DNA from: Naegleria gruberi | Taxonomy: Eukaryota | DNA length: 64,000 nt | Strand: one strand, 5' to 3' | NCBI GenBank assembly: GCA_000004985.1 | Contig: GG738850.1 | In this document: in pieces, positions 1,672 to 48,685 of the stretch | How positions within the stretch are numbered: position 1 is the first letter of the stretch | How the letters are laid out: each line of letters begins with the position of its first letter | The notes under the pieces: generated by a model | What the model saw: the letters and a program-made list of their open reading frames with translations, nothing else | Databases searched by the model: none | Told to the model about the DNA's origin: nothing | Program-made: the position numbers and the translations under genes

Positions 1672-2613
1672 ATGGAGATTACAACAACTTCATATATTAA
1701 TACTTCGTTTGATTGTATGTGTTGTAACGAATCGGAGCAATGCACTTGTTGTATTGAGATTACAACAACAATCAATATGACTACGACTACATGTTTTGAA
1801 TCGAATGAATCTAATTTTGTAAATAATCAAAAAAGGGCTTTGAAAAGACAAGCCAATTCATGCAATCACTCACGAACTAACAGTTATAGCTCATCTTGCA
1901 GTAGTACAAATAGTCATACTATGGAAGATCAAGATTTAACTCCTTTGTGTGGACTCTATCAAAACGATTATAATGAAAACGATTATTGGAGTGATGATTT
2001 GGAAGAAAATCTCTTCTCACCTATATATTATGATTCCTCAAAAATCAAACTGAGAAAGACGCCATTCCTTAACAAAAATGTTTGTCTAGACGAAAAAAAG
2101 ATATTATTTGTAGATAATGTACAAAATTGCGTAATTGAAATACCTGAAAATCATTCTTCCAATCCACCATCCATACTGACAAGATTTTTCAAACATCCAG
2201 AGAGAATTTGCTCCCACCAAACTCTTGTTTCCCTTCTATTTATTCTCACCATGGTTGGGGAGTTATTTGATCCTCACTATTCCTCTTTTATAGCCATTCA
2301 GGCTGTTTTAGCAACACTGTTGGGTATATTTGCAATTTATCGCCGAAATCAAACATTGGTGACCATTCATTCAGTATGGATTTCCGCCATTACCTCATTT
2401 ATGCTTTTACAATTTGTATTTTACATTGTTTTTGATTTTGCACAGGCTGTACATGACTATCAATTGAGTACAGGGGACTTGTTGCATTTGTGGCGATTTG
2501 GCTCTTCTCTCACTCTAATCTTTCTCGTTTTCCTTGAGTCAATCAAAGCCAGTAAAGAGTTATCAATTGTTGACACTCTGAGGAATGCTTTGAACAACAA
2601 GACCAAAAATTGA
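1672..2613 (+). CDS. hypothetical protein: Cys/Thr-rich N-terminus, C-terminal multi-pass membrane region (313 aa)
   Basis: True ATG at 1672. Several predicted TM helices near the C-terminus (LVSLLFILTMVGELF, LATLLGIFAIY, ISAITSFMLLQFVFYIVF, SLTLIFLVFL). Typical codon usage. 3' end converges on the 2781..6545 gene. Confidence 0.45.
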   Translation: MEITTTSYINTSFDCMCCNESEQCTCCIEITTTINMTTTTCFESNESNFVNNQKRALKRQANSCNHSRTNSYSSSCSSTNSHTMEDQDLTPLCGLYQNDYNENDYWSDDLEENLFSPIYYDSSKIKLRKTPFLNKNVCLDEKKILFVDNVQNCVIEIPENHSSNPPSILTRFFKHPERICSHQTLVSLLFILTMVGELFDPHYSSFIAIQAVLATLLGIFAIYRRNQTLVTIHSVWISAITSFMLLQFVFYIVFDFAQAVHDYQLSTGDLLHLWRFGSSLTLIFLVFLESIKASKELSIVDTLRNALNNKTKN

Positions 2614-2780
2614 ACATAACATGAAGACTTGAGCTGAGTCATTTGGTTTCTGATAGGTCCAATCAAACATGAATCATCAATGAAAATAAGAAAATATTCA
2701 AATGTTATGATTTCTGTAAAAGGAATTGGTCATGAATAAACTTGTTTATTTTACATTGATAATATTTTGTACATTAAATT

Positions 2781-10900: not shown

Positions 10901-13900
10901 TTTGATGAACAAATCAAAAAGTATCACAACATTCATGAACAAATCAAAGAACTTACTGCTTGTGATAATGCTGGTTGGTTGAGAGTCGATGCTAAACCAA
11001 TCAAGCAAGAATTACTCAAGATTTGTACCTCTTGGGAAAAGCTCTTCTCTAACTTCTTGGTACAAAACGTTTCTGAAAGATTGAACGATATTTATCAATT
11101 CATGAATACTGTTGAAAGTGGTATTGATAAAGAAGTTACTGATGGTGATATTACAACTCTCAGAGAAGTTATCAGATATATCAGAGATATTAAATCTGAA
11201 ACAGAGAGCGAAAATGGTATCTTCCAACCTCTTCAAGAAATTGTAGTTTTGCTTTCTCAATACGGAATTGAACTTGCTCCAAATCTTGTTCATACACTAG
11301 AACAAGCTCCAGTTAAATGGGATGGCCTCTATAAGAGATCATTGGTCAGAAGAACAGAACTTAGTGACTTGCAAGATAAGGAATCTCAAAAGGTTAAGGA
11401 ACAAGGTTTACAATTTGGTAAGAGGGTTTTGAAATTCCAAGAAGAATTCAGAGATATGGCTGCTTTCTTCTACAAGTCGGGTTCTCAAGATGCTTATAAA
11501 TCAATTGATAAGTGGCAAGTACTTTTGGTGGATATGGAAAAGGAAGCAACAAAGTTGAGAGAATTGCAAGACTTGTTTGAAATTACAGTAAGCGAATATA
11601 ATGCCCTCAAGACTTGTCGTGAAGAAGTTATGCTGCTCAAGTCTTTGTGGGATATCATTTCTCATATCTTGTCATTGTTCAAGGATTGGATGAAGACTTC
11701 CTTCAAGAAGGTAGATGTTGACGCACTCGTTGAAGAATCAAAGAAACTTAAAAAGACTATTCAAAACTTTAATACCAAGGCAAGAGCATGGGACAGTTAT
11801 TCAGGACTTAACAATGCTGTTAATAACATGCTTACCTCACTTCCTCTTGTTCAAGATTTGAGAAATCCTGCAATGAGAAGAAGACATTGGGATGAATTGC
11901 TCGAAGAAACTCACAAGAAGGGTGCTATTGATCCTGATGATAACTTTAATTTGGATCAATTGCTAGATCTTGGTTTGCACAGTTATGTAGATACAGTTCA
12001 AACTATTGTTGATAAGGCCAGCAAGGAATTAATTATTGAAAAGGCCCTCACAAAGGTTGAAAGTGTATGGTCTACACTCAATTTTGACTTTGGCTATGAT
12101 GGTGAATTGAAGTGTTCAATTATGGGAGCAGTAGAAGATATTGTTGAAATTCTCCAAGACAATCAAGTTCAATTGCAAAATATGTCCACTATGAAATATG
12201 TTGAATTCTTTATAGAATCATTGACCAAGTGGCAAATTGCTCTCTCCACAATTGATAGTATTATTACTGAATGGGTTGGTGTTCAAAAGAAGTGGCAAAA
12301 CCTTTATCCAATCTTTATGATGTCAAAGGATATCAAGGAAAAGTTGCACGAAGATGCTGTTCGTTTCGCTGAAGCCGATACTGAATGGAGAAACTTTATG
12401 GAAGTTGCTAAAGCTGTTCCAAAAATTGTTGAAGCTTGTACTGAACCAACTATTCGTACCAAGTTAGATACAAGTAAGGACGTTTTAGAAATCCTTCAAC
12501 ACATTGAAGAAAAGCTTGAATTGTGTCAAAAATCCTTGTCTGAATATCTTGAAACTAAGTGTAAAGCTTTCCCAAGATTCTATTTCATCAAAGCTGGTGA
12601 CGTTATTGATATTTTATCAAAGGGTTCATTCCCAAAGCTTGTCATGAAACACATGTCAAAGATTGTAGAAGCTGTTGAAACCTTAACTTTTGATGAAAAT
12701 AGTGATCTTACTAATGGTATGATTAGTAAGGAAGATGAAATCATTACCTTCCCAGATAAGTATGAATGTAAAGGACCTGTTGAAGATTGGCTCAATGGAG
12801 TTTTGAATACTATTGTTAGTTCATTGACTCATACCTTAGGTGATGCTCATGCCGCCTACGTTGAACAACAAAGAGATCAATGGGTATTCCAATTCCCTGC
12901 TCAAATTGTCATTGTTGCTTCTCGTGTTTGGTTCACAAGTGAAGTTAATTCTGCCTTTGAAAGACAAGAAGAAGGTAACAAGAATGCCTTGAAGGATTAT
13001 TACAATCAATTGAAAGATCAATTGGCTAAATTAACAACACTTGTTCAAGGTGAATTAACTCCAGGAGACAGAAAGAAGATTATTACCTTGATTACTGTCG
13101 ATGTCCACAATAGAGATATTGTTTTGAAACTTATTGAAGAAAAGGCAGAAAGCTCTCAGGTATTTACCTGGCAATCACAACTCAGATACAGTTGGGATGA
13201 TACAAAGGGTTGTACTATTAATATTGCTGATGCTGAATTTAAATATGGTTATGAATATATTGGTAACTGTGGTTGTTTGGTTATTACACCACTTACTGAC
13301 AGATGTTATATTACATTGACACAATCACTCAGATTGATTATGGGTGGTGCTCCAGCTGGTCCTGCTGGTACTGGTAAAACAGAAACAACTAAAGATTTGG
13401 GTAGAGCACTTGGTATTCAAGTCTACGTCTTTAACTGTACTGAACAAATGAATCCAGCTTCTCTTGGTAATATTTTCAAGGGTTTGTCAATGACTGGTAC
13501 ATGGGGTTGTTTCGACGAATTCAATCGTATTAGAGTTGGTGTCTTGTCTGTCGTTGCTACTCAATTCAAGTCTATTCTTGATGCTATCAAGGCTCAAAAG
13601 AAGGAATTTTTGTTTGAACAAGAAACTATTTCCCTCATTCCAACTTGTGGTGTCTTTATTACCATGAATCCTGGTTATAAGGGTCGTACTGAATTGCCAG
13701 AAAATCTTAAAGCATTGTTTAGACCATGTGCTATGATTGTTCCTGACTTTATGAATATTTGCGAAATCATGTTGGCTTCTGAAGGTTTTATCAATGCAAA
13801 GGAATTGGCTAAGAAATTCGTTACCTTGTATAGATTGAACAAGGAATTGCTCTCAAAACAAGATCACTACGATTGGGGTCTCCGTGCCGTTAAATCTGTA

Positions 13901-16900
13901 TTAGTTATTGCTGGTGGTTTGAAGAGAGCTGAACCTCAAGTTTCTGAAGACAGAATTCTCATGAGAGCTCTCAGAGATACCAATTTGGCCAAACTTTCAA
14001 GAGATGATATTGAAATCTTCAGAGGTTTAATTAGAGATTTGTTCCCAAAGATTGAAATTGAAGCAAAGAGTGATCCAGAATTGGTCAAGGCTGTCAAACA
14101 AGCAACTGAAGAAAAAAGATTACAAACAGGTGAAAATGATATTTTCATTGGAAAGGTTGTACAATTTAAGGAATTGCTTGATGTTAGACACTCTGTCTTT
14201 GTTTTAGGTCCTGCAGGTTCTGGTAAATCATGTGTTTGGAAAACTTTATCTAAGGCCTTTGAAATTCAAGGTCGTAGAACTTGGGCACACGTACTTAATC
14301 CAAAATCTGTTACCAGTGGTGAACTTTATGGTTATACTCACCCAGTTTCAAAGGATTGGAAGGATGGTCTGCTCTCCAATACTATGAGAGAAATGTACGA
14401 AACCAAGACACCATTACCAAAATGGATTGTTTTGGATGGTGATATCGATGCTGAATGGATTGAATCTATGAATACAGTCATGGACGACAATAAGGTTTTG
14501 ACATTGGCAAACAATGAAAGAATTCCTTTGAGTCCAAGTATGAGAATGCTTTTCGAAATTGATCACTTGAGAAATGCTACTCCTGCAACTGTATCAAGAG
14601 CCGGTATCTTGTTCTTGAACGAAACTGATATTGGTTGGAATCCATTCAAGGAAAGTTGGATTGAAACAAGATCTGTTGAAAAGGAAAAGCAAAATCTTGA
14701 TCGTTTGTTCTATACTTATGCACCACACATTTTGTTCTGGTTGAAGAAACACAATCACATTATTCCAAGACAAGATATCAGCATGATTCAAACATTGTGC
14801 TACTTGTTAGAAGGTTTGATTACACCAGAATCTTGTCCACCAGGTTGTTCTCATGAAATTTATGAATATTACTTTGCTTTTGCTTGTATTTGGGCATTTG
14901 GTGGTGCTTTGGAAGATGATGAAAGAGTTTTATTCAATGCCATGTTCAAGAAAGACTTCCCTCAAGTTAAATTCCCTGAAAATGCAACTGTATTTGATTA
15001 CTTTGTTGTTACTGAAGGTGAAACTGTTAGACTTGAACCTTGGGCTACAAAAGTTAAGGAATATAATCATGACTTTGAATTGCCATTCAATGAAATTGTC
15101 GTCTCTACAGCTGATACAGCACGTTTAACTTATTTGATGGACTTGTTGGCTGACAGAAGAAGACCTGTATTACTTGTTGGTACTGCTGGTACTGGTAAGA
15201 CAACCATTGTTAAGGGTAAATTGAGAAGTCTTGATGAAGAAACTCTCTACACTACAATTAACTTTAACAGTAATACTGATGCTGAATCATTCCAAAATAT
15301 TCTTGAACAATCTATTACCAAGAAGGCTGGTAAAATGTACGGTCCACCAGGTAGAAAGAAGCTTATTTACTTTATTGACGATCTTAACATGCCTAATCCT
15401 GACAAATATGGTACTCAATCTGCTGTTGAATTCCTCCGTCAACATATGGACTATGGATTTTGGTATGATAGAAATAATATGGGAGTCAAGGAAGTTACCA
15501 ATGTTCAATACCTTGCCGCTATGAATCCAAAGGCTGGTTCTTTCACAGTTACTGGTAGATTACAAAGACATTTTGGTATGTTTGCTTGTACATTCCCTGC
15601 AGATGCTGATTTGAAGACAATTTATTCTCAAATCATTTCTGCTCACGTTGAATCATTCGATAGAAGAGTTCAAACAATTAGTACTAAATTGGTTGATGCT
15701 ACAATCAAACTTCATAAGGAAGTTGCCAAGTTCTTCTTGCCAACTGCTGTCAAGTTCCACTACCAATTCAATCTCAGAGAAATTTCAAACATTTTCCAAG
15801 GTTTGTGCCGTTCTACTAAGGAACACTACAGTGATCCTGTTCACATGATTAGATTGTGGATGCACGAAGCTTTCAGAGTTTTCTCTGACAGAATGACAGA
15901 ACAAGATGATGTTAACAAATTCTCTGCTATGGCTACAAAGATTAGTAAGGATGTTCTCGATTGTGAAATTCAAGATGGGCAAAGCTTGTTGTTCAGCTCT
16001 TTCGTTGTTGAAAGTGATAACGGTACTGGTGTCTATTGTGAAGCCAATGATTTTAACAAGTTGAAGCTAGTTTTAGAAAAGAAGCTCGAAGAATACAATT
16101 CATCAAGATCAATTATGAATCTAGAATTGTTTAAGCAAGCTATTTGGCACGTTTGTAGAATTAGTCGTATTTTGTCAAATCCAAGAGGTAATGCCTTGCT
16201 GGTTGGTGTAGGTGGTAGTGGTAAACAAAGTTTGGCTAAATTGGCATCATTCATTAATAATTATGAAATTTCTCAAATCACTGTCACACCTTCCTACAAG
16301 ATTATCGATTTTAAGAAGGATCTTTTGGAATTGTACAAGAAATCTGGTGAAAAGGATATGAAGATTTCATTCATTCTTACAGATTCTCAAATCTTTGACC
16401 AAAAGCAATTGGTCTTTATTAACGACTTTTTGTCTTCTGGTTTCATTCCAGAATTGTTCACTCCTGATGATGTTGAAAAGTCAATTCAAGCTGTTCAACC
16501 TGCAGTTAAATATGCTGGTAAGGATCACAATGATAAGAAGGTTTGTTGGGACTTCTTCTTGGAAAAGGTCAAGAAGAATTTGCACTTGGTTCTTTGCTTC
16601 TCACCTGTTGGTGAACAATTGCGTGTTTGGTGCAGAAAATTCCCAGCCATTATGAACTGCTCTGTTATCGATTGGTTCCACGAATGGCCAAGAGATGCTT
16701 TAATTTCTGTTGCCTATAGATTCTTGACTGATGCTGATATGAATTTGGGTGATGACGAAATGATTAAGAATATTTCAGAACATATGGCCTTTGCTCACGA
16801 ATCTGTCTCAATGGCTTGTAAGAGCTATCAACACATTGAAAGAAGATACAATTATACCACACCAAAGAGTTTCTTGGAACTTATTGAAGTATACAAGACA

Positions 16901-19900
16901 TTGTTGGCCAAGAAGAGAGAAGAATTGAACGGAACAATTGAACGTTTGAGTAATGGTTTGACCAAGATTAATGAATCTGAAGAAAAGGTCAAGGAATTAT
17001 CAACTGTACTTGCTCAAGAAGCTATCATTGTCGAAGAAAAGAAGAGAGCAACAGAAGAACTCTTGGCTAAGGTTACAAAAGAAAATACCTTCTTAGCCAG
17101 TCAGCAAAAGATTGTCGAAGAGGAAGAAGTTAAACAAAACAAGGTTGTTGATGAAGTTAATGCCCTTGCTAAGGTCTGTACAGATGAATTGAAACAAGCT
17201 GAACCTCTTATTGAAAAGGCTAAGAAGTCATTGGAAGTTTTGAATGTTAAAGATTTCCAAGAATTGAAGTCATTTACCAATCCTCCAGCATTTGTCGACG
17301 TTGTTTTGTCTGCTGTCATGATTTTGAAGGCACAAAGAGGTGTACCAAAGAATGTTGTTTGGGCTGAATCCAAGAAGATGATGAATAATCCAAACCAATT
17401 CATGGTTGAATTAGTTTCTTACAATGCTGAATCCATTCCAAAGATTCCACAAGAAAATATTGATGCTTTGAAGAATAGCAAATATCTTCAACATCCAAAC
17501 TTTGTTCCATCCTTCATTGAAAGCAAGTCAACAGCTGCTGCTGGTTTGTGCGATTGGGTTATTAACGTTGTTGCTTTCTATGATTTGGACAAACAAATTG
17601 AACCAAAGAGACAAAAGTTGTCCCAAGCTATGGAAGAAAAGGAAAAGAACGAATCTCACTTGAAGAAGATTAGTGACAAATTGAACACACTCAGAAAGGC
17701 AAAGGAGCAAGCTGAAACTGAACACAATAATGCTGCTCAAGAATTGGTTAGAATTGAAAAGCAAAGAAAGAAGACTGAAGACAAATTGAATCTTGCTCAC
17801 AGATTGGTCAATGGTTTGTCTGATGAAAAGATCAGATGGGCTGAATCTATCAAGGATTTAAGAGAAAGAGAAAAGACTCTCGTTGGTGATGTATTGTTGG
17901 CCGCTGCTTTCCTTTCATATGTCGGTCCTTTCACCAAAAAGTATAGAAATATGCTTATTGAAGAAAAGTGGATTATCGATCTCAAAGAAAGAAAGATTCC
18001 AACATCAGAAGGTATTGATCCTCTCTTTGGTGTACTTGCTGAAGAAGCTCAAGTTGCCCAATGGAACAACGAAGGTTTGCCATCAGATAGAGTTTCAGTT
18101 GAAAATGGTTCCATTGTTACCAATTGTAAACGTTGGCCATTGTTGATTGATCCACAATTGCAAGGTGTTAAATGGATTAAGAATATGGAAAGTAAGAATA
18201 ACTTGCAAGTCATTCAATTGACAAAGAAGGGATATTTGGAAACTCTTATCCACGCTATTATGAATGGTTATCCTGTTTTGATCGAAAATATTGGAGAAAA
18301 TATTGATCCAATTCTTGATCCATTGCTTGCACAAAGTTATACAAGAAAGGGTAACTCTGTATCTATCAAGCTTGGTAATCGTGAAGTTGATTTTGATCCT
18401 AAATTCAGACTTTACCTTCAAACCAAATTACCAAATCCTCACTATAGACCTGAAATTGTTGCTCAAACAACCTTGTTGAACTTTATGGTCACTGAACAAG
18501 GTTTGGATGATCAATTGCTTGGTACTGTTGTCAATAAGGAAAGACCTGACTTGGAAGAATTGAGACTTTCATATTTGAGACAACTTAGACAATTCAAGAT
18601 TGAACTTAAGGGGTGTGAAGATGCTCTTAGAAATGAATTGTCAAATGCCAAGGGTGATTATTTGGAAAATCACAGACTTATTGATAACTTGGAAGCAACC
18701 AAGAAGAAATCTCAACAAATCAACGTCAGTCTTAAAGAAATTCTTGAAAATAACAAGATGATTGATGAAAGTCGTTCAGTTTATAGAACCGTTTCTACAA
18801 GAGGTTCCATGTTGTATTTCCTTATTGACCAATTGTCAAAGATTGACCACATGTATCAATATTCTCTTGAAGCCTTTATGGTTGTATTTAACAAGGCTCT
18901 TGAAAAGGCTGAACCAGCTGATAATGTAGATAAGAGAGTTGAAAACATTGTCGATAGTATTACAGAAACATTGTTCAGTTACGTTTCTAGAGGTCTCTTT
19001 GAAAGACACAAGCTCATCTTCTCAATGATGTTGTGTATTGAAATTATGAGAAAGAAGGGAGAAATTGAACCAAACCAAATTGACTTTTTACTTAGAGCTC
19101 CTAGAGTTGATGGTGTTGAAAGAAAGGAAACTGTTATTGGTTGGTGTTCTGAATTGAGTTGGGCCTATGTACAAGCACTTACTGCTATTGAAGGTACTAG
19201 TCCAGCATTCTCACTCTTACCAGATGATATGGCTGGTTCTTGGAGAAGATGGAAAGAATGGACTGAATTTGAAAAGCCAGAAGAAAAACCATTACCATTA
19301 GAATGGAAGAACTTGTTACCATTCCAAAAGTTGTTGATTATCAGATGTCTCAGACCTGACAGATTAACTATGGCTGTAACAAACTTTGTAAAGGAGAGAA
19401 TTGGTGAGAAATACGTTAAGGATATTCCTGTTGACCTTGAAGTTTCATATGGTGATGCAGGTCCTACTACACCATTATTCTTTATCCTTTCTCCTGGTGT
19501 TGACCCTGTAAAGGCTGTTGAAAGAATTGGTGAAAAGTTTGGTTTTACAGAATCTGCAGGTAAATTCAAGAACGTTTCTTTGGGTGAAGGTCAAACAGTT
19601 GTTGCCGAAAATGCCCTTCAACATGCTTTCAGAACTGGTGGTTGGGTCATGTTGAACAATCTTCACTTGACTCCTGAATGGTTAGGTGCTTTGGAAAAGA
19701 AATTGGATCAATATGCTGAACAATATGGTAGACAAGAAATGAGAGAAAAGAAGAGAAGAGAAAAGGAAGGATTAAAGAGATCATCCTCTGCTGCTGCTTC
19801 CAGGAGATTAGAAGAGGAAGAACAAGTTGAAGGTGAAAAGGGAGAAGAACCTGAAGTTGGTATTTCTATTGATCCAACCTCCCCACAAGAAGATAAGAAA

Positions 19901-21472
19901 GCAGAAATTCCAGAGGTTGAAGAAGATTCTGAAGAATCAGATGAAGAAGAAGATTTGGGACATCCAGACTTTAGAGTATTCCTTTCAGCTGAACCTTCTA
20001 ACCAAATTCCAATTGGTATCTTGCAAAGATCTATTAAGCTAACTAACGAACCTCCAAGTGGTTTGAGAGCCAACTTGTTCAGATCCCTTATGCAATTTGA
20101 TGATAATATTTGGGAAGGAAGTTCCAAACAAACAGAATTCAAGGGAATCTTGTTCTCACTCTGTTTCTTCCATGCTTGTATTGTTGAAAGAAAGAAGTTC
20201 GGTCCTCAAGGTTGGAACAGAAACTATCCATTTAACCTTGGTGATTTAATTACCTGTATTCACGTCTTGAACAATTACTTGGAAGATAGACCAAAGGTTC
20301 CATGGGAAGATTTGAGATACGTTTTTGGTGAAATTATGTATGGTGGCCACATTACTGATGACTGGGATAGAAAACTCTGTAAGACCTATTTGGAGAAGTT
20401 TATTAGACCTGATGTTGTTGATCAACTTGAGTTGTGTCCAGAATTCCTTTCACCTCCAACCAACTTGACTTATAAGGGATATTTGGAATATGTTGAAAAG
20501 GTTTTGCCACCTGAAAGTCCAGTTGCCTTTGGTTTGCATCCTAACGCTGAAATTGGTTTCAGAACCACTCAAGGTGAAAATATGTTCAACATGATTGCAG
20601 AAATGCAACCTCGTTCAACTTCTGCTGGTGATGGTATGTCCTACCAAGATAAGGTTCAAGCAGGTATTCGTAGAATTTTGGACACTTTACCAGAACCATT
20701 TAACCTTGAAGAAATTGCTGATAGACTTGATGAAGAAAGAACTCCATACCAAAACTCATTCTATCAAGAATGTGAATACATGAATAGATTATTGGTAGAA
20801 TTAGATAGATCACTCAAGGAATTGCAAAGTGGTTTGGATGGTTTGTTGACAATTACTGAAAAGATGACCATTCTCCAAGATTGTATCTATCAAAATAAGG
20901 TTCCAGAAACTTGGTCATCTCTTGCTTATCCATCTCCAAGAAAATTGGACTCATGGTTTGATGACTTGATGCAAAGATATGCACAATTATTGAATTGGAC
21001 AGGAGACTTGCAAACACCAAAGGTTGTTTGGATTTCTGGATTGTTCAATCCTCAATCATTCTTGACTGCCATTATGCAAACTATTGCCAGACAAAAGACT
21101 TGGGCTCTAGATGAAATGACTCTAGTTGCTGAAGTAACAAAGAAGTATGCTGTAGATGAAATTGAACAATCTGCCAGAGAAGGTGCCTATGTTACTGGTA
21201 TGTTCTTGGAAGGTGCTGGTTGGGATCCAAAGAAGAATCACTTGATCGACTCCAAATTGAAGGATTTGCATCCAAGAATGCCAATTATCCACATTAAGGC
21301 TGTTCAAAATGAAAAGTCTGATCCAAACAGCTTCTACGATTGTCCTGTTTACAGAACACCTGATAGAGGTCCTGATTATATTTTCACATGCAAGTTAAAG
21401 ACTCGTGATCATCCAAGTAAATGGATTATGGGTGGTGTTGCTATGATTTTGGATCAAGTGGATACATTGTAA
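7925..21472 (+). CDS. axonemal outer-arm dynein heavy chain (DNAH5/8-like), main exon (~4.5k aa, uninterrupted)
   Basis: Four P-loops typical of axonemal heavy chains: GPAGTGKTETTKDLGRALG...CFDEFNRI (AAA1), GPAGSGKS (AAA2), GTAGTGKTT (AAA3) and GVGGSGKQSLAKLASFI (AAA4, axonemal signature). N-terminal VICFFKKTKVSITPENIGTALIHFEVL aligns to the DNAH5 tail. Stalk/MTBD and C-terminal domains are all in one frame. The track ORF starts at 7937 (internal Met); the frame is open upstream to 7829. Confidence 0.93.
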   Translation: MSISMPSQYSKKVICFFKKTKVSITPENIGTALIHFEVLESPLETLSLISNKLFLPILKNSVEQTSASDQEDEDKVSRDVVTYFQKFIASTYVTSGQVEGKTLLPIPPDDVIQETSSENSDQDKDMIHTLETAVVNWANQIKEVLNKDPESLFVPNYNPGPLDEMNFWNSKYLDLESVAKQLAGEKVTKVIEILKENQSTYIPSFLKMVEEVEIRKHEAFENHRFLKPLRKYFESVNLKSDNHAEYSELPNVFRSIFHLIFMIWKTSTTYNKSERLVVLVRELCNDLIDHSREYIGGREIFNMEFPDAVEKFENTLSTCGLVKKYYFAYKLKVEQECPTNQWRVPPASLFHRLDHFLERCRDILNIFNQGRLFGKLATLQIGGTKGDSLSREVKDIYVHFSEEIAKFKEIQYDALVVEEQKFEEDFYHFKNQIKEFEKKIGSIISKSFEDCSTIHAGVKVIESFEGLLDREAVQQEIVKKQGDLLQTYRKELKRVQQTFTESKTSPIIFHNMPPVTGAIQWAESLLERINGPMNRLISLSKTIFDNSEGKETVKLHSNIVGKIKQYQQQKYAEWAKSVGEISETKLNEMLLKRTDDGMVIVNFDPALVKLLREVNYLQKINTLHEGEPAWSIPQEAIDLFSKNEKYRTQTGSLEYIVNMYNIVQGSLTPVERPLFQTQIQKIDGILERALNSLSWKNDVEIDSFLSEAMNSVKLASTTLSIIKKNTGEIEKALMKWEKNPMFQRKETRTLTMKELDGRNKEMKVTYEKMVKKTGELIVAKLSDCLEVLKGGKQKSSEEQLPEELGCIGVDESAEPWKNFVKHINDIVVDGICKSVIASVRALMDQMNVEYLLKTEQSPFLEISLNLVKKPNSEVHFATFTPSLDEKGENSFVHVVDSWINDFTTVSASIPRLDSSSGDYIKEVKSNTDVISTISQIHESIKTVTVECNKFAEQFIAQKAIYETDQKEFFDEFLEVNFPHGSHGKSHHVELPKFDEQIKKYHNIHEQIKELTACDNAGWLRVDAKPIKQELLKICTSWEKLFSNFLVQNVSERLNDIYQFMNTVESGIDKEVTDGDITTLREVIRYIRDIKSETESENGIFQPLQEIVVLLSQYGIELAPNLVHTLEQAPVKWDGLYKRSLVRRTELSDLQDKESQKVKEQGLQFGKRVLKFQEEFRDMAAFFYKSGSQDAYKSIDKWQVLLVDMEKEATKLRELQDLFEITVSEYNALKTCREEVMLLKSLWDIISHILSLFKDWMKTSFKKVDVDALVEESKKLKKTIQNFNTKARAWDSYSGLNNAVNNMLTSLPLVQDLRNPAMRRRHWDELLEETHKKGAIDPDDNFNLDQLLDLGLHSYVDTVQTIVDKASKELIIEKALTKVESVWSTLNFDFGYDGELKCSIMGAVEDIVEILQDNQVQLQNMSTMKYVEFFIESLTKWQIALSTIDSIITEWVGVQKKWQNLYPIFMMSKDIKEKLHEDAVRFAEADTEWRNFMEVAKAVPKIVEACTEPTIRTKLDTSKDVLEILQHIEEKLELCQKSLSEYLETKCKAFPRFYFIKAGDVIDILSKGSFPKLVMKHMSKIVEAVETLTFDENSDLTNGMISKEDEIITFPDKYECKGPVEDWLNGVLNTIVSSLTHTLGDAHAAYVEQQRDQWVFQFPAQIVIVASRVWFTSEVNSAFERQEEGNKNALKDYYNQLKDQLAKLTTLVQGELTPGDRKKIITLITVDVHNRDIVLKLIEEKAESSQVFTWQSQLRYSWDDTKGCTINIADAEFKYGYEYIGNCGCLVITPLTDRCYITLTQSLRLIMGGAPAGPAGTGKTETTKDLGRALGIQVYVFNCTEQMNPASLGNIFKGLSMTGTWGCFDEFNRIRVGVLSVVATQFKSILDAIKAQKKEFLFEQETISLIPTCGVFITMNPGYKGRTELPENLKALFRPCAMIVPDFMNICEIMLASEGFINAKELAKKFVTLYRLNKELLSKQDHYDWGLRAVKSVLVIAGGLKRAEPQVSEDRILMRALRDTNLAKLSRDDIEIFRGLIRDLFPKIEIEAKSDPELVKAVKQATEEKRLQTGENDIFIGKVVQFKELLDVRHSVFVLGPAGSGKSCVWKTLSKAFEIQGRRTWAHVLNPKSVTSGELYGYTHPVSKDWKDGLLSNTMREMYETKTPLPKWIVLDGDIDAEWIESMNTVMDDNKVLTLANNERIPLSPSMRMLFEIDHLRNATPATVSRAGILFLNETDIGWNPFKESWIETRSVEKEKQNLDRLFYTYAPHILFWLKKHNHIIPRQDISMIQTLCYLLEGLITPESCPPGCSHEIYEYYFAFACIWAFGGALEDDERVLFNAMFKKDFPQVKFPENATVFDYFVVTEGETVRLEPWATKVKEYNHDFELPFNEIVVSTADTARLTYLMDLLADRRRPVLLVGTAGTGKTTIVKGKLRSLDEETLYTTINFNSNTDAESFQNILEQSITKKAGKMYGPPGRKKLIYFIDDLNMPNPDKYGTQSAVEFLRQHMDYGFWYDRNNMGVKEVTNVQYLAAMNPKAGSFTVTGRLQRHFGMFACTFPADADLKTIYSQIISAHVESFDRRVQTISTKLVDATIKLHKEVAKFFLPTAVKFHYQFNLREISNIFQGLCRSTKEHYSDPVHMIRLWMHEAFRVFSDRMTEQDDVNKFSAMATKISKDVLDCEIQDGQSLLFSSFVVESDNGTGVYCEANDFNKLKLVLEKKLEEYNSSRSIMNLELFKQAIWHVCRISRILSNPRGNALLVGVGGSGKQSLAKLASFINNYEISQITVTPSYKIIDFKKDLLELYKKSGEKDMKISFILTDSQIFDQKQLVFINDFLSSGFIPELFTPDDVEKSIQAVQPAVKYAGKDHNDKKVCWDFFLEKVKKNLHLVLCFSPVGEQLRVWCRKFPAIMNCSVIDWFHEWPRDALISVAYRFLTDADMNLGDDEMIKNISEHMAFAHESVSMACKSYQHIERRYNYTTPKSFLELIEVYKTLLAKKREELNGTIERLSNGLTKINESEEKVKELSTVLAQEAIIVEEKKRATEELLAKVTKENTFLASQQKIVEEEEVKQNKVVDEVNALAKVCTDELKQAEPLIEKAKKSLEVLNVKDFQELKSFTNPPAFVDVVLSAVMILKAQRGVPKNVVWAESKKMMNNPNQFMVELVSYNAESIPKIPQENIDALKNSKYLQHPNFVPSFIESKSTAAAGLCDWVINVVAFYDLDKQIEPKRQKLSQAMEEKEKNESHLKKISDKLNTLRKAKEQAETEHNNAAQELVRIEKQRKKTEDKLNLAHRLVNGLSDEKIRWAESIKDLREREKTLVGDVLLAAAFLSYVGPFTKKYRNMLIEEKWIIDLKERKIPTSEGIDPLFGVLAEEAQVAQWNNEGLPSDRVSVENGSIVTNCKRWPLLIDPQLQGVKWIKNMESKNNLQVIQLTKKGYLETLIHAIMNGYPVLIENIGENIDPILDPLLAQSYTRKGNSVSIKLGNREVDFDPKFRLYLQTKLPNPHYRPEIVAQTTLLNFMVTEQGLDDQLLGTVVNKERPDLEELRLSYLRQLRQFKIELKGCEDALRNELSNAKGDYLENHRLIDNLEATKKKSQQINVSLKEILENNKMIDESRSVYRTVSTRGSMLYFLIDQLSKIDHMYQYSLEAFMVVFNKALEKAEPADNVDKRVENIVDSITETLFSYVSRGLFERHKLIFSMMLCIEIMRKKGEIEPNQIDFLLRAPRVDGVERKETVIGWCSELSWAYVQALTAIEGTSPAFSLLPDDMAGSWRRWKEWTEFEKPEEKPLPLEWKNLLPFQKLLIIRCLRPDRLTMAVTNFVKERIGEKYVKDIPVDLEVSYGDAGPTTPLFFILSPGVDPVKAVERIGEKFGFTESAGKFKNVSLGEGQTVVAENALQHAFRTGGWVMLNNLHLTPEWLGALEKKLDQYAEQYGRQEMREKKRREKEGLKRSSSAAASRRLEEEEQVEGEKGEEPEVGISIDPTSPQEDKKAEIPEVEEDSEESDEEEDLGHPDFRVFLSAEPSNQIPIGILQRSIKLTNEPPSGLRANLFRSLMQFDDNIWEGSSKQTEFKGILFSLCFFHACIVERKKFGPQGWNRNYPFNLGDLITCIHVLNNYLEDRPKVPWEDLRYVFGEIMYGGHITDDWDRKLCKTYLEKFIRPDVVDQLELCPEFLSPPTNLTYKGYLEYVEKVLPPESPVAFGLHPNAEIGFRTTQGENMFNMIAEMQPRSTSAGDGMSYQDKVQAGIRRILDTLPEPFNLEEIADRLDEERTPYQNSFYQECEYMNRLLVELDRSLKELQSGLDGLLTITEKMTILQDCIYQNKVPETWSSLAYPSPRKLDSWFDDLMQRYAQLLNWTGDLQTPKVVWISGLFNPQSFLTAIMQTIARQKTWALDEMTLVAEVTKKYAVDEIEQSAREGAYVTGMFLEGAGWDPKKNHLIDSKLKDLHPRMPIIHIKAVQNEKSDPNSFYDCPVYRTPDRGPDYIFTCKLKTRDHPSKWIMGGVAMILDQVDTL

Positions 21473-21596
21473 ATAAACAATTTATTATTTAATTAAAAAC
21501 GTTTTTCTAATTTTTGAGGAGTTTTTATGTTCTAAACTTTGAATACTTATGGTATATACGAGTAGCCGAATTTAAATTATTAAGATTAAAAAGGTG

Positions 21597-21667
21597 TAGG
21601 AAGACAGGGAATCGAACCCTGATCTTAGGAACCACAATCCCATGTTCTACCACTGAACTATCTCCCT
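21597..21667 (-). tRNA. tRNA-His (anticodon GTG)
   Basis: 71-nt cloverleaf read by hand: acceptor AGGGAGA/TCTTCCT with one G-U pair, D arm GTTC-AGTGGTA-GAAC, anticodon arm TGGGA-TTGTGGT-TCCTA (U33, GTG, G37), T arm CAGGG-TTCGATT-CCCTG, discriminator A. Followed by a T-run (CACCTTTTT). Identical to the copy at 48613..48683. Confidence 0.85.
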
Positions 21668-21726
21668 TCTTGCTTAAAACTAAATGAATTCATAATTTTA
21701 AAACCTCAAACTCGTCAACTCTCCGA

Positions 21727-21739
21727 TTAAGGTGGCGGT
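21727..21739. repeat. left terminal inverted repeat core TTAAGGTGGCGGT
   Basis: Exact reverse complement of 24156-24168. Confidence 0.5.
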
Positions 21740-22145
21740 AGGTGTTTCCGAAAATATTCCTTCAATAAAAAAAAAAATTGTTGTGATGAAATACTTTTCT
21801 GTTCCTTTGCTCTCCTTTCCGTCTGCTAATAGTGAACCAATATGTGCTAATCTTTTATATCGTAAATAATATTATTGTCTAGTTGTTTTTCAAATTTTGA
21901 TCAATAGATACTAGCTTTCACAGAGAAAATTTAGAGTTTTACATTTAAAAATTAAATTAGATTTTTCACTATTTGATCCTCCTTGATCCCACGATCGGAA
22001 GAGTTTCTAAATTCAAAATAATGTAGACTGTGTGTTGGTTACTTTTCGTCATGCTTTGTCATGCTTTAATTGTGATTTTACCTTCAGTTCCACAAGAACG
22101 AAAATTGGCAAACAAAGAACAACAACAACAAACAATCACAAAAAA

Positions 22146-24044
22146 ATGCAAAGAAAATTTTGTTTTGTTTGTGGAGTCTTGACAGGTGTTTTTGCAGCAA
22201 AATTCTACACAGTTAAGAATGGATTTGTTGGTAAAATACCTATTCATCATGCATGCCACGATGGTATAATTTGTGGAAAACATTATAACATATTCAGGAG
22301 ACAATTTAATAATTTAGATGAGAACTTTACAAATATTGAATTTGGAACAAATGAAACAGTACAACATAATCACTCTAACAAAACTCAATCATATCAATTT
22401 CACATTCATAATGAAAGTAACATTTTACCCTTAGACCCACAGTCATTTAAAAGTTTAGAAAATCAAAATATCGGCCTTACCATTATTCCAACTGACCACT
22501 TGATTCGTATTGTGAAACCAGTACAGTGTAAAATCTGTGAGAGCACAAATATACATTTAAGAGAAATTACTAAAAATGGATTTGAACAGATATTCCGTTT
22601 TACTTGTTTGGCTTGTAATACGGTATTTGTTTTTAGAACATGTCCAAGGAATCTTAAATTGAATAGACATATTATTCAATCATTTGAACTCTCGAACTCT
22701 ACCTATGAATCATTTAAAACATTTACAACCCTTGTCGGATTGCCAATAATTAATAAGAAATCATATTATCAAGCAACAAACAAGTTATGGAGCAGTAGTA
22801 GTCAAGTATTAAATCAAGAAATGGACAAGGAATTGGAAAAGATTGCAAATCAGAAAATGAAACAAGTGCTTGGTCCTTTAATTTCTGCATTTGAACTGGG
22901 AAGAGAAGTTCCGGCATTGATTTACTCCTTCATTCATGATGCAATATTTTTGGATATATCAGTTGATGCAAGATATTCATCTAGGAGAAATGTTTACGAA
23001 TGTACTCTTGTGGTATTCGAAACAAAGGCAAAAAAAACAATTGAACGATCACACGTTATCAAGAAAAGAGCATCTAATAGAAAAAGTGCCTTACAATGGT
23101 TTATGGGAGCCTCTAAATTAATGGAGCCAGAAGCATGTCGTTTAGCAATTACATCTTTGAAACACAAGTCATTTCCAGTAATGGGTTATGGTATTTTACA
23201 TTTCAAAATTGGCTCTTTTGTTCATGACAAAGACTCAACTGTGGCAGCAGTCATCAAGAAATTAGAACCAACAGCATTAGAAAAGTTAGATCCAAATCAT
23301 GTAATCAAAAATCTGAGCAAGGAAGTAGAAGAAAAAGCACCCCGTATTGCCAGTATTATTGTATCATCCTTTAGGAAAGCTCTAAAATTAGCCAACACCA
23401 CCACTAATTCAAATGAGAAACTCCAAGCATTATTGAAAGCTTATCCACAACATTTACAAAATAACCATTCTCTGTGCGATTCAGGTTGTCCACACACAAT
23501 TAAACCAGAAAAATTGATCACTAAAGAGGAAGCACAAGTTGTTAAAGAAATATTTGACAAACGAATCAAATATAGTCACAAATTTTGTGATATTGCATGC
23601 AATAGCCAAAACAATGAGTCCATACATAGTACTATTTGTCATACAACACCAAAGACATTAGATTTCAGTCGAAATTATTGTGGAAGAGCTGATCTGGCAA
23701 TAGGTGAACGATTGCTTGGAAAATTTGCACAATTAAGAAAAATTCAAAGATTTATTGGTAGTCTCTTCGTGATTCCAAAAGAGCAGGCCATCAAGTTAGA
23801 TACTCAATATCATCAGGATAAAATAAGGAAACAGTCTAAAGCTTATAAGGAAAGAAGAGTGGAGCTTCGGAAAACAAAACTTAAGGTAAAAGAATCTCCA
23901 CAGCCAAAGGGAACAATTGGAAGTTGCACATGTTCGAAGGGTTCGACATGTACAAAAGCTTGTCCATGCAGAAAAGCCGGGAAATCATGTACTTCCAAAT
24001 GCTCTTGTTCCCTTACCAAATGTTCAAACAACAAAAAAGTTTGA
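22146..24044 (+). CDS. putative transposase-like protein: N-terminal zinc-ribbon motifs plus C-terminal tesmin-like CXC cysteine-rich tail
   Basis: Track ORF is 22032..24044; first ATG is at 22146 (MQRKFCFVCG...). Motifs CFVCG...HHACHDGIICGKH and CKICES-x19-CLACN (CxxC...CxxC ribbon). Central segment FIHDAIFLDISVDARYSSRRNVYECTLVVFETKAKKTIERSHV loosely resembles the first-D region of ISXO2/IS1595-Merlin DDE transposases. C-terminal CTCSKGSTCTKACPCRKAGKSCTSKCSCSLTKC. No cellular family recognised. Flanked by the inverted repeats above. Confidence 0.5.
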   Translation: MQRKFCFVCGVLTGVFAAKFYTVKNGFVGKIPIHHACHDGIICGKHYNIFRRQFNNLDENFTNIEFGTNETVQHNHSNKTQSYQFHIHNESNILPLDPQSFKSLENQNIGLTIIPTDHLIRIVKPVQCKICESTNIHLREITKNGFEQIFRFTCLACNTVFVFRTCPRNLKLNRHIIQSFELSNSTYESFKTFTTLVGLPIINKKSYYQATNKLWSSSSQVLNQEMDKELEKIANQKMKQVLGPLISAFELGREVPALIYSFIHDAIFLDISVDARYSSRRNVYECTLVVFETKAKKTIERSHVIKKRASNRKSALQWFMGASKLMEPEACRLAITSLKHKSFPVMGYGILHFKIGSFVHDKDSTVAAVIKKLEPTALEKLDPNHVIKNLSKEVEEKAPRIASIIVSSFRKALKLANTTTNSNEKLQALLKAYPQHLQNNHSLCDSGCPHTIKPEKLITKEEAQVVKEIFDKRIKYSHKFCDIACNSQNNESIHSTICHTTPKTLDFSRNYCGRADLAIGERLLGKFAQLRKIQRFIGSLFVIPKEQAIKLDTQYHQDKIRKQSKAYKERRVELRKTKLKVKESPQPKGTIGSCTCSKGSTCTKACPCRKAGKSCTSKCSCSLTKCSNNKKV

Positions 24045-24155
24045 CTTGTAATAATAAATGATTTTTTATTAAAATTGCTAAATTTGTAATTTTGCCAATA
24101 ATAGATATTCGAATATTTGTAAACCAACATTTGCACTTCCAATTAAAATAGGTAG

Positions 24156-24168
24156 ACCGCCACCTTAA
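24156..24168. repeat. right terminal inverted repeat core ACCGCCACCTTAA
   Basis: Exact reverse complement of 21727-21739. Lies in the 3' flank of the CSN2 gene. Confidence 0.5.
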
Positions 24169-24250
24169 AATCGTTTACTTAACTTTCGAATAACTTACTC
24201 CGTGCCATGAACACATATCAAAATTTAATTTACAATTAAAGATTTATTAT

Positions 24251-25585
24251 TTAATTTACTCTTTGGAGAATTGCTTGGTGAACATCGTTAAGTTTGACAG
24301 TCCATTGGCTCAAAGCCTTGTATCGGGTCAATTCTTGTCCTTGTGAAGAAAGTGTGATCATTTGGTTGACTTGATCAACATAACCATCCAATTTACCATC
24401 CAAAATCATGTCAATAACTAAAGCTTCAACATCTTCAGCAGAAATGCTCAATTCCTTTCCTAAGAAGGTCATCTTGATACGAGTGTATGGCTTCATAATC
24501 TTACCCAAGACACGTGTACGAATTGTCTTTAACAAATCTTCAATATATTCCTTCATGAAATTGTCTTCTAAAATAGCCTTCTTGTTATTCTTCAAAACCT
24601 TGTCGAATTCCTTGATATTGGCTTGTTGGTAGTGTTGAACAAGATCAGTCATGGCTACAATATCAGAGTGACCCTTGTATGGTTTAGCTTCGTTGGCATC
24701 AAAAGGATTGATAGAAGATTGAGACAAGATTGAAGCCAAAACCAAATACTTCAAACAATCAATACGACGTGGATTACCAGCTTCATCATATGATTTGAAA
24801 GCTTCGAAAAAGTCATTAAAAGCTTCACTCCACTTCTTTTCACGCATATACATTTTACCACCACATTCACGAATAATACCAGTAATACGAGGATTCAAAA
24901 CGACAGCACCTCCTGAAATGATACCAATACATCTTTGATAAAGTTGGGCAAGTTTCTTGAGTTGATTTTGTTCACTGTACATTTGAATTTCAAGAACATA
25001 AACATCCAACATGTTAGATGACTTCTTTTCATCGGGCGTAACACCATCTTCTAACATACACCACTTTTTAAGATCGGTAATACAAGTGTTGAGCTTTTCA
25101 AAATCACGTGTTTGTGTAAACAATTGACCTTGCTTGAGTTTGGTATTAAACCACAACTTTTCATTGTTAGCCTTTAACAAAACTTCAAGAGTCATTCCGT
25201 AGATTTGATCAAGCATATTCTTATCTGTTGATGATGATACCATAGATAAAACCTTGTTGATAGCCTTTTCACTTTCATTTCTAGAAACAATACTCATGTA
25301 GGTGAGCAATTCCTTGTAACGTTGTACCATTTGTTCCATCATACCAGCCTTGAAAAGAGTCTTGACCATTTGCTTGAGTGATTTAAAACCCCATTGTCCC
25401 TTCTCTTCTTCCAAGTCAAGGACAGTTTGGAAAAGTTCGAGGGCTTCATCCAAGTTTTCATCAACTTCACCCTTGGCAGTGTAGTAAGTATTTTCGACAA
25501 GGTTTTCATCGACTTCATCGTCCAACATTTCATCATCTCCCTTGTCATTATCATCGAGACCTACAACTTCACCTTCATCATCTTC
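24251..25585 (-). CDS. CSN2: COP9 signalosome subunit 2 (CSN2), exon 2
   Basis: Near full-length alignment to CSN2 (e.g. GEWGFKALKQM vs GQWGFKSLKQM, IRECGGKM, FDFFEAFKSYDEAGNPRR, INPFD..EAKPYK, KPYTRI). PCI domain. The frame is open upstream of the track Met (25528) to an acceptor TAG at 25586-25588. Encodes EDDEGEVVGLDDNDKGDDEMLDDEV..., matching the acidic CSN2 N-terminus. Confidence 0.9.
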   Translation of the reverse strand, partial: EDDEGEVVGLDDNDKGDDEMLDDEVDENLVENTYYTAKGEVDENLDEALELFQTVLDLEEEKGQWGFKSLKQMVKTLFKAGMMEQMVQRYKELLTYMSIVSRNESEKAINKVLSMVSSSTDKNMLDQIYGMTLEVLLKANNEKLWFNTKLKQGQLFTQTRDFEKLNTCITDLKKWCMLEDGVTPDEKKSSNMLDVYVLEIQMYSEQNQLKKLAQLYQRCIGIISGGAVVLNPRITGIIRECGGKMYMREKKWSEAFNDFFEAFKSYDEAGNPRRIDCLKYLVLASILSQSSINPFDANEAKPYKGHSDIVAMTDLVQHYQQANIKEFDKVLKNNKKAILEDNFMKEYIEDLLKTIRTRVLGKIMKPYTRIKMTFLGKELSISAEDVEALVIDMILDGKLDGYVDQVNQMITLSSQGQELTRYKALSQWTVKLNDVHQAILQRVN

Positions 25586-25820
25586 CTATTATTATTATTT
25601 TGTTATTAATGAATTAGTATTTTCATGATGATCAGAGAATATGTTGAGATATGGAAATTGTTAAATTCAACAATATAATGATCAGCAAGAGAAAATATAT
25701 TCATATATGATAATATTAAAAAATCATGAATTAAATGTTGAATATTTTTGATCATTATCAAAATACATCATCATAAAAGATCTTGATCAATCACTACTAT
25801 CAAAAAACATTACTACGTAC

Positions 25821-25850
25821 AATTTCGAATTCAACATCATCATCAGCCAT
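25821..25850 (-). CDS. CSN2: CSN2 exon 1 (MADDDVEFEI), followed by a GTACGT donor
   Basis: ATG at 25850. Ten codons, then GTACGT (25820-25815). A 235-nt AT-rich intron ends in AATAG at 25586. Phase 0 to phase 0. Restores the conserved acidic N-terminus (human MSDMEDDFMCDDEEDYD...). Confidence 0.55.
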
Positions 25851-26880
25851 TTTGTGTGTGTTTATAGAGTACAAGGATACCAAGTGGTAATTATTTTTTA
25901 AAAATAAAAATTGATGATCTTTTTTTGCTGTGTGTTGTTGGGTGGAACTCGTTACAAAGTCGAACAAGCCACTGATTTCCACTGTGCAAGTTCACTTTAA
26001 AAAAATATTTTTAGAACACCTGATCCGATGAGCAGAAGAAAACAATCATCTACTTTTGACTAAATTACAAATAATAAATATTGGTGGTAGATTAATAAGT
26101 AGATTATCAAGAATTTATAATGTAATTTATGTTGTAGAATATTGTGGATCATCGCGATGATGATTATTATTTGTGAATATATTTAATTACCATAAATGAG
26201 GATTGTTTTGTAGTAAAATAATTTCATCATGATGGTTGTTATCATTAATCTTTATTACTCTAAACGTCTTGTAACCTGGAAGTTTTCTCTTGAAAGAGGG
26301 CCTTCCATTCATGGAGAGACCATACAGAGAGCTGTGGTTTCCATCGCGGACAGAGAATAAGGTCACACGCCTAATTTCTGTGGTACTACCCGCTTACATA
26401 CTCAAATTTTATTACTTTTACACTTATTAAGCATTATCAATCATTTATTGATTGTACTTTGAATGAAACAGGAGTTGACAAGAAGCTCAATTCACTTTTT
26501 ATTAGAAATTTTATGAAAGCTTATCAAATGTTGAGCTCAATGGACCAATGTCACTGATACCAAAAAGGATGGAATAGTTGATAGCTTGGCAGCAAGCTCT
26601 TTACTCTTGAAATTTGATTGTCATCACCTCTTCAAAACAATAACTGAAATTCTATCATTGTGAACAATAGCATTCAATGATTTTAGTCGCTAGTAGTGAT
26701 TGCTATGTTTCTTTCTTTTTTATTACATGAGGTAATTTGAAATGATTTACTTTCCTCTTGCTATTTATTTGATAAACGAACTATTGATTTACCTTCAGTT
26801 TACAATTTTCATTCATGTTGTACATCATTTTCTTTTGTGTGGATTCAGCAATAAGAATAATAGAAACAGGACAGCTTTAT

Positions 26881-32714: not shown

Positions 32715-33600
32715 ATGCAAAACAAAAACCTGCTTGGAGTTTCCGATCAGCAACAAATCGGTCGATCACGAAAATCCTCTGCCGTCGATCAAATCATCAA
32801 CCGACAAGGAAACAAGGAAAGTTTATCATCACTTTTAAATTCAAGCACTCCGAGTAGGTTTACAGTTGCTGTTTCGTCGTCTCCGAATTTTTCAACGAGT
32901 CCCTTGACGACGAATCCATTTCTATCTTCGTCTGGAGAACAATTTAATGGTGCTGTTGGGGATGAGTATAATATGGATGGAAATGTTGGAGAGAATGGAC
33001 CTAGTTTGGCAACGAGTCCTTCGGTTTCGAATAATGGATTTTTAAATTCGTTTAGTGGAGGAAATAGTGGATATAATAGTGGTATGGCAAATCTTTTTGG
33101 GAAGTCGGCAAATTTGGGATTTGATTCCGAGGAGAATGTTTTTATTTCAATTATTAAAAAATCATCACAACAGAATGCCATTGAAAGTATTTGTAGATTA
33201 TTGGAAACTCCACAAGATTTGGAGAAATTGGACGATTTGAAAAATTCTACTGAAAAACAAGTGGAAAAACTTCAAACCCAATTAACCAATTTGGCGGGAA
33301 CTCAAGTTGAAGAAGCAGATCAGGCCATTAATTTGATGGGAAAAATCAGAGATGATTTAAATGTAAAATTAAATGAAAATACCGAAAATTCCCTATTTAA
33401 CATGATGAAAGTATTGGGAGAAAATAATAGACAACTCATCGATGATTATCATATTGTGAGTGAAGTATTGTTGGCACACAACAATATTAAAAAGACAATT
33501 GAGAAATTGGAAACATTGACAGTTTTGAGAAGGAAATTGAGAAAGATTAAAGCAAAATTGAGTTACCATGATGATCAATATGTACTCAGTGCTCACTCTG
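32715..33600 (+). CDS. SEC6: exocyst complex component Sec6 (EXOC3), exon 1
   Basis: ATG at 32715. Low-complexity N-terminus, then a coiled-coil region LETPQDLEKLDDLKNSTEKQVEKLQTQL. Ends in phase 1 at a GTAAGT donor (33601). Confidence 0.8.
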
Positions 33601-33682
33601 GTAAGTTATAATTGTATTTTTGAATGGACATTCTAAATATTTCTATATTGTTGGTAATTCTCCAAAAAATTATTGTAAATAG

Positions 33683-48612: not shown

Positions 48613-48683
48613 AGGGAGATAGTTCAGTGGTAGAACATGGGATTGTGGTTCCTAAGATCAGGGTTCGATTCCCTGTCTTCCTA
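48613..48683 (+). tRNA. tRNA-His (anticodon GTG), second identical copy
   Basis: 71/71 identical to complement(21597..21667). Followed by CC + TTTTTT. Confidence 0.85.
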
Positions 48684-48685
48684 CA

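Follow-up and report, generated by a model that had tools for sequence, protein, structure and literature searches.

A 64,000-nucleotide stretch of the Naegleria gruberi genome (contig GG738850.1; this whole stretch is called the window below) contains, between a tRNA-His gene and a gene for a PCI-domain protein, one long open reading frame (ORF) enclosed by a perfect 13-nt inverted repeat, TTAAGGTGGCGGT at 21727-21739 and ACCGCCACCTTAA at 24156-24168. An original prediction made from the letters alone had proposed an inverted-repeat DNA transposon with its own transposase, and this proposal is supported here by a target-site duplication, a precise empty site in another genome, a probable second identical copy and a predicted DDE transposase fold of the RNase H type. 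We identify the element, with high confidence, as an autonomous copy of Kolobok-1_NaeGru, a member of the Kolobok superfamily, in the N. gruberi NEG-M reference genome. The features of the locus are collected in Table 1.

The inverted repeat and the empty site

The two copies of the 13-nt repeat are its sole occurrences in the window, even when two mismatches are allowed, and they enclose exactly one long ORF, as had been proposed; its length is 632 aa if counted from the first ATG and 670 aa if counted from an upstream GTG. The ORF product is identical at 632/632 residues to XP_002681291.1 (NAEGRDRAFT_63184), deposited as a "predicted protein" on a 707,703-bp N. gruberi scaffold. When the two intergenic flanks of the ORF were shuffled, a perfect inverted repeat of at least 13 nt appeared in 14 of 2000 trials; the repeat is thus unlikely to be due to chance, but it is less extreme than the expectation of 0.001 first attached to it.

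The flanking PCI protein was looked up in public assemblies. Two contigs were recovered, L001 from ENA and L002 from Logan, produced by two assemblers from one environmental run (ERR1078381, project PRJEB11402). Positions 1-2585 of L001 align to window positions 26743-24166 with 98.6% identity, and positions 2583-3271 align to 21730-21043 with 99.3% identity. L002 has the same junction and likewise 98.6-99.3% identity in its flanks. On both contigs 2,434 bp are missing, and the flanking matches overlap by 3 nt (TAA). The empty allele reads CTCTCCGA-ATAA-AATCGTTT (in short form CCGA-ATAA-AATCG), whereas the filled allele reads CTCTCCGA-TTAA-GGTGGCGGT... at the left junction and ...ACCGCCACC-TTAA-AATCGTTT at the right (in short form CCGA-TTAA-[element]-TTAA-AATCG). 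The empty allele also has the tRNA-His gene, at L001 2646-2717, without any change. The genome with the empty site is that of an environmental Naegleria about 99% identical to the window at this locus.

Comparison of the empty and filled junctions places the element at 21731-24164, with 9-bp terminal inverted repeats and a duplicated TTAA. The 13-nt repeat that first drew attention is therefore real but composite: it consists of a palindromic TTAA joined to the 9-bp terminal repeat, and its outer four nucleotides are the target-site duplication and lie outside the element. A further extension of the repeat, read originally as 'CGATT', is target DNA and is also found at the empty site. The insertion polymorphism indicates that the element has likely been mobile in Naegleria recently.

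Table 1. Features of the element and its neighbourhood, in window coordinates
Feature	Position	Strand	Basis or remark
Target-site duplication, left copy, TTAA	21727..21730		Empty-site contigs L001/L002 join 21730 to 24166
Complete Kolobok-1_NaeGru element (very probable assignment), 2,434 bp, 5'-GG...CC-3' termini	21731..24164	+	Exactly the segment missing from L001/L002
Left terminal inverted repeat GGTGGCGGT	21731..21739	+	Perfect complement of 24156-24164
Transposase ORF, 632 aa + stop, no intron needed	22146..24044	+	First ATG 22146; stop codon 24042-24044
N-terminal C-x2-C...C-x2-H putative zinc finger (C6, C9, C43, H46)	22161..22283	+	All four residues invariant in both N. gruberi paralogs
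CxxC-x22-CxxC zinc ribbon (C128, C131, C154, C157)	22527..22616	+	Kept in P0001, P0003, P0121, P0018
DDE catalytic core, aa 268-495	22947..23630	+	224/226 identity to Kolobok_1_NaeGru_1p; predicted fold matches DDE transposases
C-terminal CXC cysteine-rich domain, aa 594-626, 9 Cys	23925..24023	+	Full-length sub-threshold match to Pfam TCR PF03638
Right terminal inverted repeat ACCGCCACC	24156..24164	-	9 bp, perfect
Target-site duplication, right copy, TTAA	24165..24168		Filled versus empty allele
Dynein heavy chain, 4,511 aa, one uninterrupted ORF	7937-21472	+	Upstream neighbour
tRNA-His(GTG), outside the element	21596-21667	-	ARAGORN and Rfam RF00005 at 69.2 bits
PCI-domain gene	24251-25528	-	Downstream neighbour

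Assignment to Kolobok

The ORF had been described as having no recognisable family, and the element as unclassified and perhaps undescribed. Neither description holds. The protein matches Pfam PF20700 ("Mutator-like transposase") with E=4.5e-17 and 62.5 bits against a cut-off of 26.5, over profile positions 5-351 of 357. Its core is also nearly identical to a published Kolobok sequence: the Data S5 alignment of Kojima & Bao 2022 (Mob DNA 13:24; PMC9587614) lists Kolobok_1_NaeGru_1p and Kolobok_2_NaeGru_1p, and the first of these, with gaps removed, is identical to ORF residues 268-495 at 224/226 positions. The second is identical at 230/232 positions to a paralog, P0001, described below. The few mismatches look like machine-reading (optical character recognition) slips of the PDF. 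The tree in Fig. 4 of the same paper already includes the protein within Kolobok, and the transposon family is already catalogued.

Kolobok elements are defined by TTAA duplications and 5'-RR...YY-3' termini, their transposases carry a C/DxxH motif and, ahead of the catalytic E, a zinc finger, and Naegleria is among their known hosts in Repbase (PMC9587614). Nearly all Kolobok transposases have this finger, whereas the related MuDR, P and hAT enzymes lack it (PMC9587614). In the window, TTAA stands on both sides of the element and a single ATAA at the empty site, and TTAA likewise bounds the related elements on five metagenomic contigs (L003-L007). The termini, 5'-GGTGGCGGT ... ACCGCCACC-3', are of the RR...YY type and form inverted repeats. 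The core carries D274, D361/D363, the DxxH motif D382-P-N-H385 (382-385) and E491, and ahead of E491 lies the finger H436-x4-H441-x2-C444-x3-C448-x-H450. Among these residues D274, D361, D363, H385, H436, H441, C448 and E491 show no variation in 8 relatives and almost none in 30, and C444 is nearly invariant in the 30.

The Pfam name of PF20700 can mislead superfamily assignment. The same model is shared with Kolobok-1_CGi, Kolobok-1_LHu and Kolobok-1_XT, and the Kolobok cores of oyster, Lingula and Xenopus match it at 1.5e-53, 1.2e-50 and 1e-8. Since bona fide Kolobok cores match PF20700, its name does not contradict the assignment to Kolobok.

Compared with Kolobok-1/-2_NaeGru of Repbase, both from N. 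gruberi, the window element matches in the core of its protein and has the TTAA duplication and GG...CC termini of the superfamily; no difference was found, and the termini are presumably identical. Animal Kolobok elements (Kolobok-1_XT; Xenopus XKol/T2-MITE; PMC6004289) likewise duplicate TTAA and have purine-purine termini (AG/AGGRR in Xenopus, GG here), and their transposases share the DDE triad, the C/DxxH motif, an H2CH-type finger before the catalytic E and the same Pfam model. The window element differs from them in having no detectable THAP domain, no AVPTIF box and no second KolX ORF, and in size, at 2.4 kb with 9-bp repeats versus 7-14 kb. Its C-terminal CXC domain is also not among the Kolobok features described in the Kolobok papers cited here.

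A confident AlphaFold2 model of the transposase was built from a 30-sequence alignment (mean predicted local distance difference test score, pLDDT, 80.7; predicted template modelling score, pTM, 0.69). The predicted RNase-H-like fold is closest to those of IS256/Mutator, hAT and P-element transposases, and a Foldseek comparison matched it to ISCth4 with E=1.2e-5. A sequence search of solved structures with the transposase gave nothing. ISCth4 (IS256/Mutator family; PDB 6XG8, 6XGX), the hAT transposase Hermes and the P element transposase are only 6-11% identical in sequence to the window protein, lack a zinc finger before the catalytic E and belong to elements with other duplication lengths. 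The duplications of hAT and P elements are 8 bp long.

The Pfam name and the structural match to a "Mutator family" enzyme could also be read as marking a member of the Mutator superfamily, a Mutator-like element (MULE) or Phantom-type element, and some relatives of the protein carry Ulp1 protease domains. We consider this most improbable. MULE groups make target-site duplications of 8-11 bp (PMC6446971), compared with the 4-bp TTAA here, and on this criterion membership in MULE/Phantom was rejected. Visual inspection of several candidate boundaries for a 9-bp duplication of the MULE type found none, and the TTAA duplication later accounted for this. The zinc finger ahead of the E is reported to be specific to Kolobok and missing from MuDR, P and hAT enzymes, and the window protein itself has been entered in the curated Kolobok alignment (PMC9587614). 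PF20700 is matched far more strongly by bona fide Kolobok cores. The structural matches are explained by the acknowledged kinship of Kolobok with MuDR, P and hAT. The intact ORF and an intact 61%-identical paralog suggest selection on the protein, and NCBI annotates both as ordinary predicted proteins, but a domesticated, single-copy, transposase-derived host gene with the inverted repeat as relic or coincidence is barely credible for a segment that is precisely absent between TTAA boundaries in a ~99% identical genome, has perfect terminal repeats and duplication, probably has a second identical copy at another locus and keeps all its catalytic residues.

Two other superfamilies were considered for the element and rejected. 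The original prediction had seen in the protein a resemblance to IS1595/Merlin transposases. Elements of that group have an ISXO2-like DDE domain and an 8-9 bp duplication; the window protein has no ISXO2/IS1595-type Pfam match at E<=1, and its element duplicates 4 bp, TTAA. PiggyBac elements share the TTAA-specific 4-bp duplication. They end in CCC...GGG, and their transposases have a C-terminal cysteine-rich domain. The window element ends in GG...CC, and RR..YY termini set Kolobok apart from piggyBac (PMC9587614); its core is of the Kolobok/MuDR/hAT/P type, with the DxxH motif and a large helical insertion, and has no match to a Pfam piggyBac family.

Some points weigh against the Kolobok-1_NaeGru reading as well. 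At the target the empty allele has ATAA and the filled allele TTAA on either side of the element, and one single-nucleotide polymorphism must be assumed. Such a change in the first target base is plausible, since the adjacent spacer has diverged by 1-3.5%. The ATAA (L001 ~2585-2590, equivalent to window 21727-21730) is therefore more likely a substitution in the environmental strain than an excision footprint. The window shows a single full copy, and no further copies, fragments or miniature inverted-repeat transposable elements with these ends were found across its 64 kb. A THAP domain is usual in animal Kolobok transposases, though not universal; the window protein lacks an AVPTIF box and has no Pfam THAP match even at E<=10. 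That the full element matches the Repbase consensus in termini and length is something we infer from the protein core only. Finally, the cleavage and strand-transfer steps described next are drawn by analogy with the DDE cut-and-paste enzymes of the hAT/P/MuDR/Kolobok group.

By that analogy, the transposase would bind the GGTGGCGGT termini through at least one of its zinc modules (the N-terminal C2CH finger, the CxxC zinc ribbon or the C-terminal CXC domain), and DDE-catalysed cleavage would excise the element. Its 3'-OH ends would then join the two target strands at TTAA, at positions 4 nt apart, and repair of this stagger would produce the TTAA duplication.

Two of the zinc modules had been noted from the letters, and both the CxxC...CxxC motif (C128/C131/C154/C157) and the CXC tail (aa 594-626) are present. 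The zinc ribbon falls in the N-terminal part of the PF20700 match and was modelled as a three-stranded sheet with pLDDT 86-96. The CXC tail matches Pfam TCR (PF03638) with E=0.029 and 15.1 bits, under the cut-off of 23.5. Among relatives, the corresponding domain matches TCR in two proteins (down to 7.6e-6) and MSL2-CXC in one; it is kept in P0001, P0024, P0023 and P0018 and absent from P0003 and P0011, and P0121 has a CCHC knuckle instead. The N-terminal motif, C6-x2-C9-x33-C43-x2-H46, has THAP-like spacing, and a similar CxxC...CxH motif occurs in P0121 and P0011. This putative finger is a candidate DNA-binding domain, its assignment to THAP not being established.

The element matters little beyond annotation, where the deposited "predicted protein" should be labelled Kolobok-1_NaeGru transposase. 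Small additions are a clean filled/empty allele pair that shows recent mobility in Naegleria, exact ends (9-bp repeats and TTAA), a conserved terminal sequence, GGTRGCGGTA, and a domain map with a CXC tail and no detectable THAP domain. The empty-site polymorphism and the domain map are absent from the papers cited and are new in this analysis. If active, a compact 2.4-kb, single-ORF, TTAA-specific element could be a candidate genetic tool for Naegleria, although this is speculative.

Further copies and relatives

An exhaustive profile search over 1.84 billion representative proteins found 119 relatives of the transposase at E<=1e-3 and 25 at E<=1e-10, including more N. gruberi proteins, a transcript from Pharyngomonas (Heterolobosea) and metagenomic proteins. 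The paralog P0001 (XP_002681476.1, 649 aa) is 61% identical to the window protein, colinear with it from first to last residue and encoded by an intact ORF, on a scaffold of the same length as that of XP_002681291.1.

Another N. gruberi protein, P0002 (XP_002668216.1, encoded on a 3,888-bp scaffold), agrees with the window protein at every residue of aa 272-580. Because its C-terminal tail is encoded nowhere in the window, P0002 most likely represents a second, identical Kolobok-1 copy elsewhere in the genome, which the gene predictor joined by splicing to foreign flanking sequence. The predicted protein starts in an alternative frame of the element, continues with 309 identical transposase residues, uses the GT equivalent to window position 23886 as splice donor and ends in 55 residues absent from the window. 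The gene model is probably chimeric and marks the second copy on a short, repeat-broken scaffold. Contig-index look-ups of P0001, P0002 and the window protein returned no matches.

More distant relatives allowed the ends of other elements to be read. P0121 (726 aa, ~24% identical) is encoded on four contigs from ENA metagenomes (L004 783-3199; L005, L006, L007), and two of these come from the project that also yielded the empty site. The P0121 element has a 16-nt terminal repeat and the boundaries TTAA|GGTAGCGGTACACCAC...GTGGTGTACCGCTACC|TTAA in at least three different flanking contexts. The first 10 nt of the window element, GGTGGCGGTA, match the P0121-element end (GGTAGCGGTA in L004) at 9/10 positions, and the terminal sequence GGTRGCGGTA is conserved between elements whose transposases are only ~24% identical. 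P0027, a metagenomic protein of 820 aa (L003 312-4257), is a fusion of PF20700 with an RNase_T/DEDDh exonuclease; its element has a second ORF of 230 aa on the opposite strand, is bounded by TTAA|GGAGCAATTTTA and resembles the published KolobokD lineage. As read from these contigs, the ends of the P0121 and P0027 elements independently confirm the end signature of the clade. Two further metagenome scans, one by protein alignment and one with the back-translated DISVDARYSSRRN pattern, gave nothing.

The neighbouring genes and the tRNA-His gene

The window is AT-rich (32-39% GC) and its host is an intron-poor eukaryote. The dynein heavy chain ORF ends 124 bp from the tRNA-His gene, and the element was inserted upstream of that gene, 59 bp from its 5' end. 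Before the insertion, the whole dynein-tRNA-PCI spacer measured only ~340 bp, tRNA included. An Rfam scan of 20000-26000 found nothing beyond the tRNA.

The position of the element had been taken to imply targeted integration upstream of genes transcribed by RNA polymerase III (Pol III). Such targeting could work, for instance, by tethering to TFIIIB/TFIIIC as for Ty3 or Dictyostelium TRE, and membership among Pol III-targeted elements (Ty1/Ty3, Dictyostelium TRE) would call for many copies inserted at one fixed distance from tRNA genes. Our analysis does not support this, and we consider a Kolobok element with such targeting very unlikely. The 59-bp distance is suggestive in that positions no more than 60 bp upstream of a tRNA gene account for only 1.2% of crude intergenic bases in the window. 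For an element that inserts at TTAA, the corresponding share is 6/160 intergenic sites (3.8%), and sites within 60 bp on either side of a tRNA gene make up 7.5-9%. The observation is a single case noticed post hoc, and because the spacer was only ~340 bp long and holds the tRNA, an insertion anywhere in it would seem close to a tRNA gene. At four sites of related elements (L003 and three of the P0121 family) the readable flanks, several of them short, contain no tRNA, and the other two tRNA genes of the window have no element beside them. Such targeting is also not mentioned in the Kolobok literature cited. With one copy, a base rate of 3.8-7.5% and relatives that lack a nearby tRNA, the closeness to tRNA-His is most likely incidental, and the element would have landed in one of the few TTAA sites of a short, gene-free and tolerant spacer.

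A broader version of the idea joins two claims, that natural N. gruberi populations harbour a currently mobile Kolobok-1_NaeGru and that the tesmin-type CXC domain of this heterolobosean lineage, in place of a recognisable THAP domain, picks ends or targets, possibly with a preference for Pol III-transcribed loci. Recent mobility is likely because of the insertion polymorphism, whereas the targeting part comes from the single case above, and we give the two together little chance of being right.

The window contains a second tRNA-His(GTG) gene, at 48613-48684 (+), identical to that at 21596-21667 (-); the match extends over 83 bp at 100%, including a few adjacent bases, and the wider flanks of the two genes are unrelated. 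The inverted repeat as a motif shared upstream of tRNA genes was ruled out, as these flanks are unrelated. A 642-aa ORF beside the second tRNA-His gene (48773-50701) was considered as a second copy of the element and ruled out, being an unrelated TPR/F-box protein. Elsewhere in the window, three ORFs have no Pfam match at E<=0.001: 46344-48170 (-) with 608 aa, 1672-2613 (+) with 313 aa and 32715-33611 (+) with 298 aa.

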